Made by a program: the position numbers and the translations under genes | Source of the DNA: Methylophaga sp. | GTDB taxonomy: Bacteria > Pseudomonadota > Gammaproteobacteria > Nitrosococcales > Methylophagaceae | Direction of reading: 5' to 3' | DNA: 64,000 nt | Assembly: GCA_011053005.1 (NCBI GenBank) | Contig: DRHW01000016.1 | Span: 39,851-103,850, forward strand | Shown: positions 27,240-34,069 of the stretch, piece after piece | How the letters are laid out: each line of letters opens with the position of its first letter | Numbering within the stretch: position 1 is the stretch's first letter | Notes under the pieces: generated by a model | Seen by the model: only the letters and a program-made list of their open reading frames with translations | Databases searched by the model: none | What the model was told of the DNA's origin: nothing

Positions 27240-27767
27240 TTAAGCTAATACGTTTTTGGTATTACGACGAAAACCCATAAAGGCTAATAAGGCTGGTGCA
27301 AGTAAAAATATTGCAGCAGGAAGAGGGACTGCCGATATAGCTGATACATTTAAAGACATTCCGCCAGTATTATCTTTGTAATTGGTATCGCGGATGAAAA
27401 ATTTAACCGTTGCATCGGATAATAAAGTGAAAGTCGTGCTAATTGCATTGAGTAACGCTAATTCCGGAGTAGCATATCTACTAAGGTTACTAATAAAATT
27501 AACACCTGTCTCCGGTGTTTCAAAGGAGTAGCTATTAATCCAGCCTTTTGAACAGTTTTCTCCTGCACCATTACAGCCTGACGTTGCGCTCCAAGCATTC
27601 CATGATGTGAAAATGCCAGCAAATGGATTAACACTATAGGTGCCCGCCGTCAGAAATAATTCAACGGGATTGAGATTTGTATTGGTTTTTGCAGTGAGGT
27701 CAACAACTGCTGCATTGACTGTTATGGGGGCAATCAAAAACAGTCCTAACAAAATGATTTTCTTCAT
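27240..27767 (-). CDS. Secreted protein with C-terminal PEP-CTERM / VPLPA-CTERM-type sorting signal
   Basis: 175 aa with a signal peptide (MKKIILLGLFLIAPITVNA). The C-terminus AVPLPAAIFLLAPALLAFMGFRRNTK has the motif, TM helix and basic cluster expected of exosortase substrates. Confidence 0.7.
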   Translation of the reverse strand: MKKIILLGLFLIAPITVNAAVVDLTAKTNTNLNPVELFLTAGTYSVNPFAGIFTSWNAWSATSGCNGAGENCSKGWINSYSFETPETGVNFISNLSRYATPELALLNAISTTFTLLSDATVKFFIRDTNYKDNTGGMSLNVSAISAVPLPAAIFLLAPALLAFMGFRRNTKNVLA

Positions 27768-27918: not shown

Positions 27919-28326
27919 AAAAAATAAATAGCATTAGCAATGCTTCTAAAGCGCCTATTTACCTGGCTTAAGCGGTATTGAATATAATTGTTTATTTATA
28001 AATCTATACATTTTCATGCACTTAGCTAGTGCGGAATCGTTTTTTTTGCTCTATTGCAGTGCTTATTAATTTGAATTTTTAACAGGTTTAAGTCTGTAAT
28101 CAGGCTAAGGATTGACCACTTTATAGGCTAAACTGACTAATTTTACTGAGGTTGAATTAGAATTGAGTTCAACTAGTTAAGCGATAGAATAGTGGTACTG
28201 AACTATTTGATTTTGTTATTATCAGCTACTTAGTTTGACGTTCTGTTAAATTAAACATAGTCAAGGGTATGAAAGGTGAAGCGCTTTCTTTGTCTTTGGA
28301 ATATTCTAAACAGAGAAACCATCTTT

Positions 28327-29793
28327 ATGACCATCTTTTTTATCTGTATTGCTATATTGATCCTTGGCTATAAATTTTATAGTCCTTTTGTTGAAAAACA
28401 AGCAGGTATTGACGCGACAACAATCACTCCGCAAGCTCGTTTCAATGACGGTGTCGATTATGTAGAAATTCATCCGGTTCGCGCTTTTCTCATACAGTTT
28501 TTGAATATTGCCGGTGTCGGCCCTATATTTGGCCCTATCTTGGGCGCGTTATATGGTCCTATAGCATTAGTGTGGATTGTACTTGGCAATGTTTTTGGCG
28601 GCGCTGTTCACGATTATTTTTCTGGCGTGATGAGTATTAAAGAAGATGGTAAAAGTCTGCCAGAAATTGCAGGGCATTATTACAACACAGTATTTAAAGG
28701 CTTCATGCTGATCTTTACCGCGATGTTGCTGTTTTTCGTTGGTGTCGTTTTTATCATGAGCCCAGCTGGATTATTAAGTAATTTAGACGCATTCAAAGGC
28801 ACATTTATGGCTAACAATACCTTTTGGGTGTTAGTTATTTTAGCTTATTATTTTTTAGCTACTTTGTTGCCGATCGATAAAATTATTACTAAGTTTTATC
28901 CTATCTTTGGTTTGTTAATGATCGTGATGACGACCATGATCGCCGTTGCATTATTAATAGAAGCTCCACATTTACCAGTAACAGGCGATTTTCTGGCTTA
29001 CTTCAGTGCAGACCATCATGCTCATGATTTATTAACGCCGAACCCTGATGGATTACCAACTTGGCCTTTATTATTTGTGACGATTACCTGTGGTGCAATA
29101 AGCGGTTTTCACTCGACACAAGCACCTATTATCGCGCGAACTTTAACCAATGAAAAATACGTCCGTCCCGTATATTACGGCGCAATGGTATGCGAAGGTA
29201 TCGTGGCCTGCGTTTGGGCGTTAGCTGGTATTGCTGCATTTCCTGAAGGTTATGCAGGATTAAAGGAGTTACTTGATCTCGGTGGTCCTGGATTGGTGGT
29301 CAACCATGTTGCAAACAGTTATTTAGGCGTATTAGGCGGCATTATGGCGATTATCGCGGTGGCAGTTTTTCCTATTACTTCGGGCGATACGGCATTTCGT
29401 TCATTACGCCTCACCATCGTTGATGCGTTCAATATTCCACAAAGTGTACGCAATCGTTTATTACTGGCATTACCTATTTTAACGATTGCATACTTTATGA
29501 CTAAGCTGGATTTTTCACTGATTTGGCGTTATTTCGCCTTCTCAAACATGCTGTTATCGACCAGTGTTTTATGGCTAGCTACTAAATATTTATTCGATCG
29601 TGGTAGTTTTCATTGGATTGTCAGTATTCCTGCTGTTATTACTACAGGTGTCACCATCTCTTATATTATGACGGCATCGATCGGCTTTAATTTGTCTTCA
29701 GATTTTGGACGACCTATTGGTGCGGCGGTCATATTTATTGGTTTGGTTTTACTCATTATTGTCAATAACAAGCATAAGATTTCTGCAGTCTAA
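28327..29793 (+). CDS. Carbon starvation protein CstA family transporter (short form)
   Basis: The ORF track begins at GTG 28276. ATG 28327 (MTIFFICIAILILGYKFYSPFVEKQ) matches the usual CstA N-terminus. Polytopic, with motifs FLNIAGVGPIFGPILGA and SGFHSTQAPIIART. Confidence 0.82.
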   Translation: MTIFFICIAILILGYKFYSPFVEKQAGIDATTITPQARFNDGVDYVEIHPVRAFLIQFLNIAGVGPIFGPILGALYGPIALVWIVLGNVFGGAVHDYFSGVMSIKEDGKSLPEIAGHYYNTVFKGFMLIFTAMLLFFVGVVFIMSPAGLLSNLDAFKGTFMANNTFWVLVILAYYFLATLLPIDKIITKFYPIFGLLMIVMTTMIAVALLIEAPHLPVTGDFLAYFSADHHAHDLLTPNPDGLPTWPLLFVTITCGAISGFHSTQAPIIARTLTNEKYVRPVYYGAMVCEGIVACVWALAGIAAFPEGYAGLKELLDLGGPGLVVNHVANSYLGVLGGIMAIIAVAVFPITSGDTAFRSLRLTIVDAFNIPQSVRNRLLLALPILTIAYFMTKLDFSLIWRYFAFSNMLLSTSVLWLATKYLFDRGSFHWIVSIPAVITTGVTISYIMTASIGFNLSSDFGRPIGAAVIFIGLVLLIIVNNKHKISAV

Positions 29794-29899
29794 TCTTTTG
29801 TTAATTAGTCCGTTAGCATCTAAATATACTGGTTTACAGTAAATGAAATGTTCGAAAAATAAATACTTCAAACTTAAGCGGATATGAACGTTATTTTGA

Positions 29900-29928
29900 T
29901 TGACTGTTTTATTGGCTTAGCTCACAAT
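29900..29928 (+). promoter_or_regulatory. Candidate sigma70 promoter for the small ORF-secDF unit
   Basis: TTGACT-N17-CACAAT. The -10 element ends 25 nt before ATG 29954. Confidence 0.3.
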
Positions 29929-29953
29929 CTGCGAACTTAATTGCGAGCCGTTC

Positions 29954-30349
29954 ATGAAATTTTATCTAACACAGCAGTTTGAACAACGTCATGCCACTAT
30001 CTGGCAGCTGTTTGTATTGTTGTTATTATTTAATAGTCTTGCCTTTACTGGTTGGGTAGACTCTCGCCATTTAAAAACGTCGAGCAATTCAAATGTTGTT
30101 GCTGATTTTAATCACACTACTTTCGCTAATCTTCGTGATAACTATCGCTCATTATTCAATGTTAAAAATCTTAGTGTTCCAAAGAGCAGTGATGGTGATT
30201 CACAACATCACTGGCTAGTTAGTTCTAATGATTTAAGCTTTCCTTTTTCAGCATTAATAAACGCTGAAAACTTCCATTATTTGACGTTATATATTATTGA
30301 TAATATCAAATATCAACTACACCTTACTCGCGCTCCACCACTGAAATAA
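29954..30349 (+). CDS. Hypothetical 131-aa protein; candidate secretion-monitoring ribosome-arrest peptide (C-terminal RAPP motif)
   Basis: I recognise no family. An N-terminal hydrophobic segment IWQLFVLLLLFNSLAFTGWV is present. The C-terminus is ...YQLHLTRAPPLK*, with R-A-P-P encoded at 30329..30340, two codons before the stop. It lies 57 nt upstream of secDF on the same strand. Confidence 0.5.
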   Translation: MKFYLTQQFEQRHATIWQLFVLLLLFNSLAFTGWVDSRHLKTSSNSNVVADFNHTTFANLRDNYRSLFNVKNLSVPKSSDGDSQHHWLVSSNDLSFPFSALINAENFHYLTLYIIDNIKYQLHLTRAPPLK

Positions 30350-30406
30350 TCCCTACCTAATAAGCTTTTATTTGTTTAACAACGAAGTTATCTTCGAGGA
30401 TTATTT
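30344..30406 (+). promoter_or_regulatory. Candidate SD-sequestering long-range stem (small-ORF stop region pairs with secDF RBS)
   Basis: AAATAATCC (30344..30352, spanning stop codon 30347..30349) is a perfect complement of GGATTATTT (30398..30406, the GAGGA SD and spacer just before ATG 30407). A nested local hairpin CGAAG-ttat-CTTCG lies at 30383..30396. Confidence 0.45.
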
Positions 30407-32926
30407 ATGCGTTCATTTTATTCGCGGGCTGTTCTATTCAGCTTGATTATTATCTTCGGGCTGCTGTGTGCATTGCCCAATGTATTACCACATTCAGCTA
30501 GCAAGGATCTGCCTAACTGGTTTACTGGAAATACTTTTTCTTTAGGTCTGGACTTAAGTGGCGGATCTCATTTGCTGATGCAGGTCGATACCGATGACTT
30601 AAATCTCAACGATCACCAGAAATTAGCCGACCAAATCACCGATGGTTTACGTGAGGAACGACTTTTTATTCAGCCAATTTCGGTTACTAAAAATAAGCTT
30701 GTTATCACGCCAAAAGATACCAAACGATTAGCTGATATCAAGAAATTTATTAGCGCTTTTATTGAGGATCCAAAAGGCGGTAGAGCGTTATTTTCAATAG
30801 ATGTTGAAGCCAACCAACTCACTATCACACCAACTAAAATACATAGTGAAAAACTAACGCAAGATGCGGTTGAGCATAGTTTAAAAGTAGTGCGTCAGCG
30901 TCTAAATGAAAGTGGTTTGGTTGATCCCACGATAACTAAACAAGGTGATGACGGCATTCTTATTCAATTGCCTGGAGTAGATGCTCCGAGCTATATACGA
31001 TCTCTACTGGGTACCACAGCAAAAATGACATTTCATTGGGCAGTCAATGATCAATCTTCAGGTGTTATCCGTGCTCAAGGTGTTACGGAAGGTGAAAATT
31101 ATTCTTTAGAAGAACGTGTTGCGCTTGAAGGGGAACATATAAAAGACGCGAATTTAGTCTTTAGTCACGAAAATGGACAGCCTGTTGTTAGTTTTGTACT
31201 CGATAAAGAAGGTGCTAGACGATTTGGCGAAATGACTAAAAAGAATATAGGTCGTCAATTAGCAATTGTACTGGATGATAAAGTCATCACAGCTCCTGTC
31301 ATTCGAAGTGTTATAGATGGCGGTCGTGGAGAAATTAGCGGTTCATTTACAGTTTCAGAAGCTAATGAACTCGCGTTATTACTACGAGCAGGAGCGTTGC
31401 CCGCACCTTTAAATGTAATAGAAGAACGGACTGTTGGCCCAGATTTAGGCAGTGATTCAATTTCAATGGGTATTACTACAGGCGTCATTGGTGCAATCTT
31501 AGTCTTACTCTTTATGTTAACGATTTACGGTAGCTGGGGATTAATTGCCAGTTTAAGTTTAGTGGTTAACATTGGTTTGATTTTTGGCGTATTGAGTCTC
31601 TTAGGTGCAACGCTTACATTGCCAGGTATTGCTGGAATAATTCTAAGTATTGGTATGGCTGTTGATGCCAATATTTTGATCAATGAACGTATTCGGGAAG
31701 AAACTCGACATGGTAAGAGTGCTTTTGCTGCGCTTGATGCAGGATTCAACCGAGCATATAGCACTATTTTGGATTCCAATATCACATCATTGATTGCTAT
31801 TAGTTTGTTATTTATGTTTGGTAGCGGGCCAGTTCGTGGTTTTGCTGTGGCAATGGCGATTGGTTTATTAACGTCGATGTTTACGTCTATTTCATTTACA
31901 CGATTGTTGATGGAATGGCGTGTTAAACATATGCCAAAACAATCTTTGCTTAATATTTCAGGTATTAAAGCTTTAGATCGAATTAGTAATAGCAAAATTG
32001 ACTTTATGCGTGGTCGTTTTATCGGAATTGCTGTATCGGCTATATTGTCATTAGCCTCGATTGGATTATTTTTTCAACCGGGTTTGAACTACGGCATCGA
32101 TTTTAGTGGAGGAAGTATTGTCGAAGTTAAGGCACCGAATACTAACGTCGAACAGGTTCGGAAAACCTTACAGTATAAAGGGCTTGGACAAGCCTCTATT
32201 CAAGAATTTGGTGAAAAAGACACTTATCTTATTCGTCTACCGATAGAAAATGCAGCCCAAGTTGCTAACGGTCAATCCACTCAAAACATTAAACAAGCTG
32301 TTCAATCCTTATCACCCGATGCAAGTTTTCCACGCGTTGAAATGGTGGGACCAAAGGTCAGTGGTGATTTTCATGATGCGACTATCTTAGTGATTGTTTT
32401 TGCTGGATTTGGTATGTTGGCCTATTTATGGGTGCGTTTTGAATATCATTTTGCCTTAGCTGCCACATTAACTATTGCGTTAGATTTGACCAAGACCATA
32501 GGCTTTTTTGTGCTGACAGGCGTCGAATTTAATCTGACGGCTGTGGCTGCTCTGTTAGCTTTAATCGGATATTCAGTTAATGACAAAGTGGTGGTATTTG
32601 ACCGCATTCGTGAAAACTTACGATTAACGCCCGATAAACCTATGTTGCAATTGCTTAATGAAAGTATTACTTCAACATTAACCAGAACCGTATTCACCTC
32701 AACAACGACGTTTTTAGCATTGATTCCAATGGCTGTTGCAGGCGGCAGTGCGGTGGTTAGTTTTGCCTTGCCGATGTTATTTGGCATTGTGATCGGTACC
32801 AGCTCATCAATATTTATTGCGGCACCAATAGTATTTTGGATGGGACAGCATCGCCAGCGTAGAGGTCTTTCACAATTAAGGCCGACAGCGGAAGAGATGA
32901 AAAAGAAGCTAGACGCTATTCTGTAG
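30407..32926 (+). CDS. secDF: Fused protein-export membrane protein SecD/SecF
   Basis: 839 aa. The SecD N-terminus and P1 domain (LGLDLSGGSHLLMQVD, LAIVLDDKVITAPVIRSVIDGG, LLLRAGALPAPL) are followed by six TM helices. The SecF part follows (INYGIDFSGGS, DKVVVFDRIRENL) with six more TM helices. Confidence 0.9.
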   Translation: MRSFYSRAVLFSLIIIFGLLCALPNVLPHSASKDLPNWFTGNTFSLGLDLSGGSHLLMQVDTDDLNLNDHQKLADQITDGLREERLFIQPISVTKNKLVITPKDTKRLADIKKFISAFIEDPKGGRALFSIDVEANQLTITPTKIHSEKLTQDAVEHSLKVVRQRLNESGLVDPTITKQGDDGILIQLPGVDAPSYIRSLLGTTAKMTFHWAVNDQSSGVIRAQGVTEGENYSLEERVALEGEHIKDANLVFSHENGQPVVSFVLDKEGARRFGEMTKKNIGRQLAIVLDDKVITAPVIRSVIDGGRGEISGSFTVSEANELALLLRAGALPAPLNVIEERTVGPDLGSDSISMGITTGVIGAILVLLFMLTIYGSWGLIASLSLVVNIGLIFGVLSLLGATLTLPGIAGIILSIGMAVDANILINERIREETRHGKSAFAALDAGFNRAYSTILDSNITSLIAISLLFMFGSGPVRGFAVAMAIGLLTSMFTSISFTRLLMEWRVKHMPKQSLLNISGIKALDRISNSKIDFMRGRFIGIAVSAILSLASIGLFFQPGLNYGIDFSGGSIVEVKAPNTNVEQVRKTLQYKGLGQASIQEFGEKDTYLIRLPIENAAQVANGQSTQNIKQAVQSLSPDASFPRVEMVGPKVSGDFHDATILVIVFAGFGMLAYLWVRFEYHFALAATLTIALDLTKTIGFFVLTGVEFNLTAVAALLALIGYSVNDKVVVFDRIRENLRLTPDKPMLQLLNESITSTLTRTVFTSTTTFLALIPMAVAGGSAVVSFALPMLFGIVIGTSSSIFIAAPIVFWMGQHRQRRGLSQLRPTAEEMKKKLDAIL

Positions 32927-33013
32927 CATATTTGATAATCATCATAACTAGTTAATAAATAGGGCCTAATGCTGACTTTTTCTACATTAGGCCCTTACCA
33001 ATGGATAAATAAT

Positions 33014-34069
33014 ATGACGTGGATAATGTTAGTTGCAGGATTAACTTTACTGATTGTGGGTGCAGAGCTATTGGTTAAGGGTGCTGCTCGATTAGCAACT
33101 AGTTTTGGTATTCCGGCATTGGTTATAGGTTTAACAGTTGTCGCTTTTGGTACGAGTGCACCTGAATTGGCCGTCAGTATAAAAGCCGCTTTTTCTGGGC
33201 AAGCAGAATTAGCAATAGCAAACGTGGTTGGCAGTAATATTTTTAATATTTTGTTTATCCTTGGGGTGGCAGCTTTAATAATGCCATTAGTCGTATCTAA
33301 GCAACTTATTCGACAAGATGTACCCATCATGATCGGTATTAGCATCCTTGCATTAGTTATGATTCAAGATGGTGTTATCGTCAAATTGGAAGCGTCTATT
33401 TTGTGTATAGGCGTCATTTTGTACACGTTTTTTTTATTTTACCAGGGTAAAAAAATCGGCGCAGAGAGCAGTAATACGACAGTTGAGATAGCAGCACCTG
33501 TCTGGTTAAATATAATTTTTATTGTCACAGGCTTAGCGTTACTTATTCTTGGTTCACGATGGTTAGTGGAGAGTGCGGTTAATATTGCGTCATCATTTGG
33601 GGTGAGTGAAGTGGTCATTGGTTTGACGATTGTTGCGGTGGGTACTTCGTTACCTGAAGTGGTGACATCTATCGTTGCTACGCTTAAAGGTGAGCGAGAT
33701 ATTGCCATTGGCAATGTAGTTGGCAGTAATATATTTAATATCTTGGCGGTATTAGGTATATCAGGATTGTTTTCACCGACGCCTTTGCTGGCAAGTGAGC
33801 AACTGATACACATCGATATTCCCGTAATGGTTGCTGTAGCTCTAATATGTTTACCGTTGTTTTTTATGGGTAGTACATTAAATAGATTTGAAGGTTTTTT
33901 ATTCTTAGTTATTTATATCGGTTACGTATGGTATACCGTGGCGATGGCACTATCACTACATTATTTACCACAATTGCAAATGGGGCTACTTTATGGGCTA
34001 GGGCCTTTAATTGGATTTTACGTGGGGTTATGTTTGTTTAAAGACCTGTTAAAGCGTCGATATTTATAG
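33014..34069 (+). CDS. Ca2+/Na+ (cation) antiporter, CaCA/YrbG family
   Basis: Two alpha-repeats are present: GTSAPELAVSI...GSNIFNILFILG and GTSLPEVVTSI...GSNIFNILAVLG. The ORF track starts at 32969. ATG 33014 (MTWIMLVAGL) fits the family N-terminus better. Confidence 0.85.
   Translation: MTWIMLVAGLTLLIVGAELLVKGAARLATSFGIPALVIGLTVVAFGTSAPELAVSIKAAFSGQAELAIANVVGSNIFNILFILGVAALIMPLVVSKQLIRQDVPIMIGISILALVMIQDGVIVKLEASILCIGVILYTFFLFYQGKKIGAESSNTTVEIAAPVWLNIIFIVTGLALLILGSRWLVESAVNIASSFGVSEVVIGLTIVAVGTSLPEVVTSIVATLKGERDIAIGNVVGSNIFNILAVLGISGLFSPTPLLASEQLIHIDIPVMVAVALICLPLFFMGSTLNRFEGFLFLVIYIGYVWYTVAMALSLHYLPQLQMGLLYGLGPLIGFYVGLCLFKDLLKRRYL

Follow-up and report, generated by a model that had tools for sequence, protein, structure and literature searches.

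Results

A likely arrest leader precedes the fused secDF gene of Methylophaga

In a 64,000-nucleotide stretch of genomic DNA (contig DRHW01000016.1; the window, that is, the whole stretch analyzed) that by its sequence comes from Methylophaga, GTDB order Nitrosococcales, a 131-residue open reading frame (ORF) at 29954..30349 on the + strand lies directly upstream of a gene for a fused SecDF. We consider it likely that this ORF encodes a RAPP-type arrest leader peptide, a candidate monitoring substrate, and that it forms a unit with secDF in which the upstream ORF (uORF) would expose the secDF Shine-Dalgarno (SD) sequence through a ribosome stall. The observations that carry this reading are the anatomy of the ORF, its conservation at related loci, selection on RAPP at the level of the peptide, and the covariation of an RNA helix over the secDF ribosome-binding site. 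Stalling, export-dependent release of the stall and induction of secDF we infer by analogy with relatives that have been tested.

An N-terminal hydrophobic export signal is predicted from hydropathy at residues 16-35 (IWQLFVLLLLFNSLAFTGWV; 29999..30058, + strand), with a mean Kyte-Doolittle value of 2.12 in its best 15-residue window, K2 and R12 preceding it, and S-L-A ahead of a Phe after it. The likely signal-peptidase site, placed by eye with the -3/-1 rule, is S28-L29-A30 with cleavage before F31, and the NSLAF around it is kept in the closest Methylophaga relatives (clade A, defined below). Near the other end of the peptide, translation gives the core R126-A127-P128-P129, with the codons CGC GCT CCA CCA (30329..30340, + strand), followed by CTG AAA TAA (Leu, Lys, stop), which leaves two codons between the motif and the stop. 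Comparison of orthologues suggests an extended arrest region, Y120-Q-L-H-L-T-R-A-P-P129 (30311..30340, + strand), and the stretch between the best hydrophobic window and P128 is 95 residues long. This RAPP is the sole RAPP, RGPP, RAGP or RAPG among open frames of at least 60 residues in the six frames of the window, the G+C content of which is 39.5%. A gap of 57 nt separates the leader stop codon, whose last base is 30349, from the secDF ATG at 30407 on the same strand. The candidate target gene itself (30407..32926, + strand) encodes 839 residues, and its product matches the Pfam families SecD_SecF_C, SecDF_P1_head, SecD_1st and Sec_GG as well as NCBIfam NF009583 (893 bits against a cut-off of 721).

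The initial annotation of this DNA had described a family-less 131-residue ORF with a hydrophobic N-terminal segment and an R-A-P-P two codons before its stop, 57 nt ahead of a fused secDF. These claims were confirmed: the coordinates are exact, the hydrophobic segment is at residues 16-35, the motif is present in the sequence, SecDF is identified by both Pfam and NCBIfam, and the leader ORF has no match to a Pfam or NCBIfam family. The ORF had also been called unannotated, which is right in that no function has been assigned to it but not in that the gene had already been called; the identical protein is on deposit as 'hypothetical protein LCGC14_0635630 [marine sediment metagenome]'.

The uORF and its C-terminal motif are kept at gammaproteobacterial secDF loci

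Scanning the SecDF protein against one genome per species gave 77 loci. The closest SecDF proteins, at 82-87% identity, are those of Methylophaga (M. muralis, M. pinxianii and several metagenome-assembled genomes, together clade A). Identity is 60-71% in other Methylophaga lineages, 52-69% in Marinobacter, Idiomarina/Pseudidiomarina, Halopseudomonas, Pseudohongiella, Cellvibrionaceae, Marinimicrobium, Nitrincola and others (60-69% for Marinobacter, Idiomarina, Halopseudomonas and others), and 35-43% at eight deltaproteobacterial or alphaproteobacterial loci. One ORF ending upstream of secDF was taken per locus, and two gammaproteobacterial loci were left out because they had too little upstream sequence.

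All 67 gammaproteobacterial fused-secDF loci for which upstream sequence exists carry a co-oriented uORF, with a median length of 129 residues. When the window is included (68 uORFs), the C-terminal motif is RAPP in 57, RGPP in 5 and RAAP in 6; RAPP or RGPP thus ends 62/68 orthologous uORFs. Uniqueness within the window and recurrence at all 67 loci set the pattern apart from chance. In 62/68, the N-terminal part contains a hydrophobic segment whose mean Kyte-Doolittle value reaches 2.0 or more, and the tail from motif to stop is exactly two residues long in 52/68. Measured from where the hydrophobic window ends, the third motif residue comes at a median distance of 93 residues, with a range of 85-101 except at locus L058, where the start codon is probably mis-set. 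RAPP occurs in at least nine Methylophaga species-level genomes (loci L001-L006, L063, L034 and L067), and it is kept in L001-L006, L063 and the related protein P0002 described below.

Across the loci, the motif uses all six synonymous codons for Arg, all four for Ala and all four for Pro, which places the selection at the level of the peptide, not of the RNA. Against close relatives, the ratio of nonsynonymous to synonymous substitution rates (dN/dS) is 0.20-0.33 for the leader ORF and 0.05-0.07 for secDF, approximate values as dS is near saturation; the leader ratio shows that the ORF is translated and constrained, though fast-evolving. The comparative check proposed in the initial annotation, namely that an upstream ORF, its signal and a C-terminal R-A/G-P-P be kept at related loci, was therefore positive, with the ORF at all 67 gammaproteobacterial loci. 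Its expectation that the middle of the protein drifts held between orders but failed in the close Methylophaga clade, in which conservation extends along the entire protein (64-91% mean column identity per 10-column block over alignment columns 11-140).

At the eight non-gammaproteobacterial loci (L064, L065, L066, L070, L071, L075, L076 and L077), the ORF upstream of secDF is yajC-like and not a RAPP uORF, a likeness judged by eye from a FYFLLIRPQQKK-type motif (LLIRPQQKK-type) and not by family search. The arrest leader therefore appears to go with the gammaproteobacterial secDF lineage only.

Sequence similarity fades beyond Methylophaga while short motifs and spacing persist

A word-index search with the leader protein returned the protein itself and one relative of 64% identity (P0002, ending PTRAPPHQ), and a HMMER profile search of 1.84 billion cluster representatives found two clusters only (131 and 132 residues), both Methylophaga-like. 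Weak cross-genus similarity appeared in a targeted comparison among syntenic uORFs, where clade-A peptides align colinearly with those of Idiomarina, Marinobacter and Halopseudomonas at 23-36% identity over 85-115 residues (best 42 bits). Among these syntenic uORFs, the window ORF itself has no match beyond clade A at E<=0.01, and it joins the cross-genus group through its clade-A relatives. Profile-profile comparison linked this 40-member group to the Methylophaga clade ending in RAAP (probability 94%) and to the Nitrincola group (97%).

Beyond RAPP, the uORFs share a GF(V/I) motif past the signal and a D.D...W motif. The latter is present in 21/65 uORFs, with its Trp 39-41 residues before the residue predicted to sit in the ribosomal P site (W87 in the window). 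Counting from the motif Arg, position -6 is aromatic in 40/65 distinct orthologues and position -3 is Pro in 41/65; the window peptide has Tyr at -6 and His at -3. The spacing between signal and arrest motif is near constant across three GTDB orders. A published overview describes the spacers of secDF uORFs as long and variable, and compared with it the spacing in the lineage of the window looks unusually constrained.

A covarying RNA helix pairs over the secDF ribosome-binding site

Both the minimum free energy (MFE) fold and the centroid fold of 30300-30430 pair 30344-30352 with 30398-30406. The 5' arm (AAAUAAUCC; 30344..30352, + strand) comprises three triplets, the K131 codon, UAA (the stop) and UCC, and in the window it spans +9 to +17 nt, counted from the predicted P-site codon's first base. 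The 3' arm (GGAUUAUUU; 30398-30406) spans the final three bases of the SD sequence GAGGA (30396-30400) and the spacer up to the AUG (SD and spacer together, 30396..30406, + strand). Both arms are placed by the folds, by duplex calculations and by covariation. Between them, the fold contains two inner hairpins (30361..30396, + strand), one formed by 30361-30365/30374-30378 and the other by CGAAG 30383-30387/CUUCG 30392-30396; the second recurs at clade-A loci, and the inner region differs in length and sequence in other lineages.

The pairing is a general feature: at 62 distinct loci, a duplex with a median of -14.3 kcal/mol joins the SD/AUG region to the 30 nt that begin with the P-site codon. 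Measured from that codon, the start of the 5' arm falls at +0 to +11 nt, with a single exception. In an alignment of 26 loci with a two-codon tail, 84% of the cells of a 12-bp helix are paired, compared with 33-54% after sliding the partner by 1-3 columns, a percentage that is favored by the derivation of the helix from the same aligned sequences. Double-sided changes are the stronger evidence: 6/12 helix pairs show compensatory changes, for example UAAUCC/GGAUUA to UAACUC/GAGUUA or UGAUCC/GGAUCA, and the covariation score was reached by 0/500 shuffles. Rfam has no family match in 29700-30600.

The MFE fold also contains an outer helix between CUCGCG at 30327-30332 (the Thr125/Arg126/Ala127 codons) and CGCGGG at 30423-30428 (secDF codons 6-8), which would enclose the whole intergenic region, and similar outer pairings occur at several loci. 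As a conserved element it was unsupported, the duplex median across loci being -10.3 against -7.8 for shuffles (standard deviation 3.3), which is not clearly better. Transcription attenuation was rejected too: the leader region offers just a 5-bp hairpin followed by AGGATTATTT, and GC-richer relatives are without a U-tract after the helix.

Discussion

Proposed mechanism and points against it

We propose that the ribosome would stall while its P site holds peptidyl-(...R-A-P128)-tRNA on the Pro128 codon (30335-30337) and its A site holds Pro129-tRNA on the Pro129 codon (30338-30340). This position is predicted because of the toeprints of the RQH family of RAPP-like uORFs (PMC10987492) and the cryogenic electron microscopy (cryo-EM) structures of ApdA and ApdP (PMC10951233). 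The RAP nascent chain would block peptide-bond formation, as was shown for ApdA and ApdP and as we would expect for the Methylophaga peptide. In toeprinting, the ribosome shields about 15-17 nt downstream of the first P-site base. A ribosome stalled at Pro128 would cover the mRNA to about +15 nt and so take in 30344-30352; with this arm occupied, the secDF ribosome-binding site would stay open and SecDF would be made. When export is efficient, the signal sequence would engage the Sec machinery during the pause; with about 95 residues between the hydrophobic segment and the P-site residue, the signal would be well outside the ribosome. Translocation would then pull the nascent chain and release the arrest, the released ribosome would terminate three codons on, the helix would re-form and secDF translation would fall.

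Several observations weigh against this reading. RAPP by itself is not sufficient, and the window peptide has His at -3 from the Arg, where 41/65 relatives have Pro. The export signal is assigned from hydropathy and the -3/-1 rule alone. The helix of the window is A/U-rich and weak, with a duplex energy of -9.4 kcal/mol (z -1.7), and the fold of the region (z -1.83) is equaled by 7/200 shuffles. A terminating ribosome would also open the helix transiently, so some secDF expression would come from plain translation of the uORF. Finally, no second secD or secF was found within the 64-kb window.

Alternative explanations

The last but one of these points leads to ordinary translational coupling, in which reading through to the stop briefly melts the helix, no arrest is programmed and RAPP is kept for some other reason. 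The stop codon does lie in the 5' arm of the helix, so that termination alone must open it, and the arrest-defective P127A mutant of Fujiwara et al. kept residual expression that an early stop codon abolished (PMC10987492). We nevertheless regard coupling without arrest as quite unlikely. It leaves unexplained the invariance of R-A/G-P-P across orders despite full synonymous turnover, the fixed two-codon tail (52/68 loci) and the export signal at about 93 residues; RAPP and RGPP rank among the most avoided tetrapeptides in bacterial proteomes (PMC12992588), and the Alteromonas counterpart requires arrest for full induction (PMC10987492). Less probable again, and in our view very improbable, is an ordinary small secreted protein that is co-transcribed with secDF and in which RAPP and the SD pairing are without regulatory meaning. 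Such a protein would fit the moderate conservation of the entire sequence in the close Methylophaga clade (64-91%) and the weakness of the window's own helix, but not the retention of ORF, motif, tail length and spacing at 67/67 loci in three GTDB orders where overall similarity is nearly gone, nor the covariation of the helix, nor a design identical to that of an experimentally proven switch (PMC10987492).

A different question is what an arrest peptide at this site would sense. Rather than general Sec flux, its signal might be ionic (Na+ or proton-motive force), or it might be a ligand or metal in the periplasm; we judge this unlikely. Vibrio VemP-secDF2 responds to Na+-dependent SecDF1 activity (PMC11470409), and a Na+/Ca2+ exchanger gene comes right after secDF here and at eight other loci and stands upstream of the uORF at four Marinobacter loci, a linkage that is not universal. 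RAPP uORFs are found before non-Sec genes as well and are able to respond to copper, CruR being an example (PMC12992588), and the conserved motifs of the mature region, GF(V/I)... and D.D...W with its fixed Trp, would be needless in a mere spacer. Against ligand sensing, neither Pfam nor NCBIfam recognizes a ligand-binding domain in the leader peptide. Against sensing of ions or ligands alike, both the target gene, which codes for part of the Sec machinery, and the Sec-type signal of the peptide make export feedback the simplest loop. The link to proton- or sodium-motive force raised in the initial annotation is speculation.

A RAAP sister clade and a possible wider family

In a sister Methylophaga clade, the uORFs end ...YFLPEPRAAPQA before the stop codon, with an R-A-A-P core in place of RAPP (L007:2936-2947, L008, L009, L010, L029 and L062). 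The SecDF proteins of this clade are 66-71% identical to that of the window, RAAP is kept in its six genomes with synonymous variation (GCC/GCA, CCT), and the SD-masking helix is retained, shifted onto the Pro and Gln codons. In saturation mutagenesis, replacing the third-position Pro kills the arrest of ApdA and, except for replacement by Gly, that of ApdP (PMC12992588). The literature that we searched held no link between RAAP and translation arrest. RAAP may be either a new working arrest core, like RAGP of SecM, or a decayed loss-of-arrest variant that keeps the RNA switch.

More tentatively, the uORFs of Methylophaga, Marinobacter, Idiomarina, Halopseudomonas, Nitrincola and others could be one broad, fast-evolving gammaproteobacterial family, which has not so far been treated as a single family. 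We hold this possible but doubtful. The design of such a family would be tighter than a signal plus RAPP, comprising a ruler of about 93 residues, a two-codon tail, conserved motifs in the mature region and RAAP in the sister clade. On this broad-family reading, the two-codon tail would set an anti-SD anchored at the stop codon at the stalled ribosome's edge, and the Trp 39-41 residues from the P site would lie roughly at the tunnel exit. If it is true, parts of the peptide outside RAPP take part in sensing or release. The finding of the Methylophaga leader alone opens no new question; the RAAP clade and the 93-residue spacing could teach how arrest is set and released.

Promoter and neighboring genes

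A consensus scan found a sigma-70-like promoter upstream of the leader (29900..29928, + strand), with TTGACT at 29900-29905, a 17-nt spacer and CACAAT at 29923-29928. Both hexamers are invariant at 7/7 clade-A Methylophaga loci, and the sequence farther upstream varies. We presume from its sequence that this site is active as a promoter; its conservation and its position directly upstream suggest that the uORF and secDF are transcribed as a unit of their own.

The gene upstream of the uORF, at 28276-29793 (+ strand), encodes CstA, a carbon-starvation protein, and is not syntenic: no CstA gene lies within 3 kb at any of the related loci, and the conserved block starts only at the promoter, at 29900. 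Farther upstream, a 175-residue ORF at 27240-27767 (- strand) has a signal-like N-terminus and a C-terminal end, ...VPLPAAIFLLAPALLAFMGFRRNTKNVLA, that resembles a PEP-CTERM-type sorting tail; it has no Pfam match at E<=0.01. On the other side, a gene of the Na+/Ca2+ exchanger family (PF01699) lies at 32969-34069 (+ strand), 42 nt past secDF on the same strand. An exchanger gene also follows secDF at eight related loci (L001-L005, L063, L011 and L034) and stands upstream of the uORF at four Marinobacter loci (L019, L021, L023 and L033). This adjacency may hint at a tie between this SecDF copy and cation gradients.

Comparison with known arrest peptides

The leader peptide is, by its sequence, not ApdA, ApdP, VemP or SecM, each of which shares part of its design. 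ApdP (Sinorhizobium medicae, Alphaproteobacteria; Sakiyama et al. 2021, PMC7897499; PMC10951233) has the RAPP core near its C-terminus and an N-terminal signal, as does ApdA of the Actinobacteria (PMC7897499, PMC10951233), and the RAPP mechanism has been solved structurally by cryo-EM of these two peptides (Morici et al. 2024, PMC10951233). ApdP and ApdA precede secDF2, and the Methylophaga leader likewise stands before a secDF gene. They belong to other classes or phyla, and HMMER profile and word-index searches detected no sequence similarity to them.

VemP of Vibrio alginolyticus stands ahead of secD2 and secF2, which in Vibrio are separate genes. VemP is, as is predicted for the Methylophaga leader, a secreted monitoring substrate, and marine gammaproteobacteria encode both ahead of SecDF, which in the case of VemP is a second copy; VemP arrest uncovers the ribosome-binding site downstream, and export of VemP cancels the arrest (PMC10987492, PMC11470409). 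The arrest sequence of VemP is not RAPP-like, its spacer from signal to arrest has a median of 133 residues against about 93 here, and it has no sequence similarity to the leader, for which no profile match was found outside the Methylophaga clade. SecM, upstream of secA in E. coli, is likewise a secreted arrest peptide. Its R-A-G-P core adopts the conformation of RAPP in the peptidyl-transferase center, and the ribosome stalled on it opens an SD-masking helix of the downstream sec gene, as is proposed here (PMC12992588, PMC10987492). The target and the motif differ, with secA and FxxxxWIxxxxGIRAGP in SecM and secDF and YQLHLTRAPP in Methylophaga, and the two show no sequence similarity.

The nearest class is the RQH family. 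Fujiwara et al. 2024 (Nat Commun 15:2711, PMC10987492) searched 30,175 GTDB genomes for short ORFs ahead of secA, secDF and yidC, requiring a localization signal, conservation at the C-terminus and more than 30 residues of spacer. Those with a RAPP-like motif before secA or secDF make up the RQH family, with 19 order-level groups, 11 of them before secDF, and 416 uDF_RQH uORFs plus orphans; the names ApdP and ApdA are reserved for the alphaproteobacterial and actinobacterial groups. All of the candidate sec/yidC-upstream arrest peptides tested, 11 of them from the RQH family, stalled B. subtilis ribosomes and many stalled those of E. coli too, and in the RQH toeprints the P site held the third residue of the motif (PMC10987492). 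Later work found RAPP and RGPP arrest to be robust and EF-P-refractory, and the motif to be avoided in proteomes (Fujiwara et al. 2025, PMC12992588).

By every computable published criterion, the leader ORF qualifies on its sequence as a uDF_RQH member. It is a short, family-less ORF directly upstream of secDF on the same strand, with an N-terminal signal (by our crude hydropathy test; the authors used SignalP and DeepTMHMM), a conserved (R/Q/H)-(A/G)-P-P-like C-terminus and a spacer of 95 residues (more than 30 required). The nine or more Methylophaga genomes with RAPP exceed the three motif-bearing uORFs required from one order, and the taxon belongs to neither the Actinobacteria nor the Alphaproteobacteria. 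A covarying SD-masking helix that overlaps the predicted footprint of the stalled ribosome is present as well. The claim of a new gammaproteobacterial RAPP-type arrest peptide controlling secDF accordingly is supported, as far as computation reaches, as to the proposed function, on conservation at 67 loci and the covarying helix, but not as to novelty of kind (PMC10987492). The Fujiwara genome set includes Methylophaga genomes, in which the authors' motif search would catch RAPP uORFs (PMC10987492). The type of switch has been known since 2024; the Methylophaga case is a further example that might already be listed by Fujiwara et al.

What the case adds is a likely function for a 'hypothetical protein' outside every protein-family library searched, and an extension of the RAPP-type secDF switch to Methylophaga in the order Nitrosococcales. 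The covarying SD-masking helix, traced over about 60 loci, gives comparative support to the published model. An annotation rule by which such leaders can be recognized also emerges: a uORF of about 130 residues that has a signal peptide, an R-A/G-P-P with two more codons between it and the stop, and an anti-SD that coincides with the stop codon.

The published example that comes closest is the 131-residue peptide of Alteromonas naphthalenivorans (R125GPP), which stalls ribosomes in vivo as well as in vitro. It induces secDF2 5.6-fold above the arrest-defective P127A mutant by opening an SD-masking 'stem-loop 2', and stem mutations bypassed the need for arrest (PMC10987492). Between this uDF_RQH_Enterobacterales member and the Methylophaga leader there are clear differences. 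The host orders are GTDB Enterobacterales and Nitrosococcales, respectively. The core is RGPP with a three-residue tail in Alteromonas and RAPP with a two-residue tail here, and the C-terminal contexts are unrelated (...FYWKGISNRGPPSSL in Alteromonas and ...IKYQLHLTRAPPLK in Methylophaga). The sole Alteromonadaceae locus that we obtained (L056) falls outside the cluster of the window. The layout is nevertheless shared: both are gammaproteobacterial uORFs of 131 residues directly before secDF, in Alteromonas a second copy, with an N-terminal localization signal, the R-G/A-P-P core is at 125-128 there and at 126-129 here, and a short tail and a UAA stop follow in both. In both, the stem's 5' arm falls within the codons that come directly after the motif, which is the same topology; for Alteromonas, the C-terminus and the mutated stem bases were read from primers.

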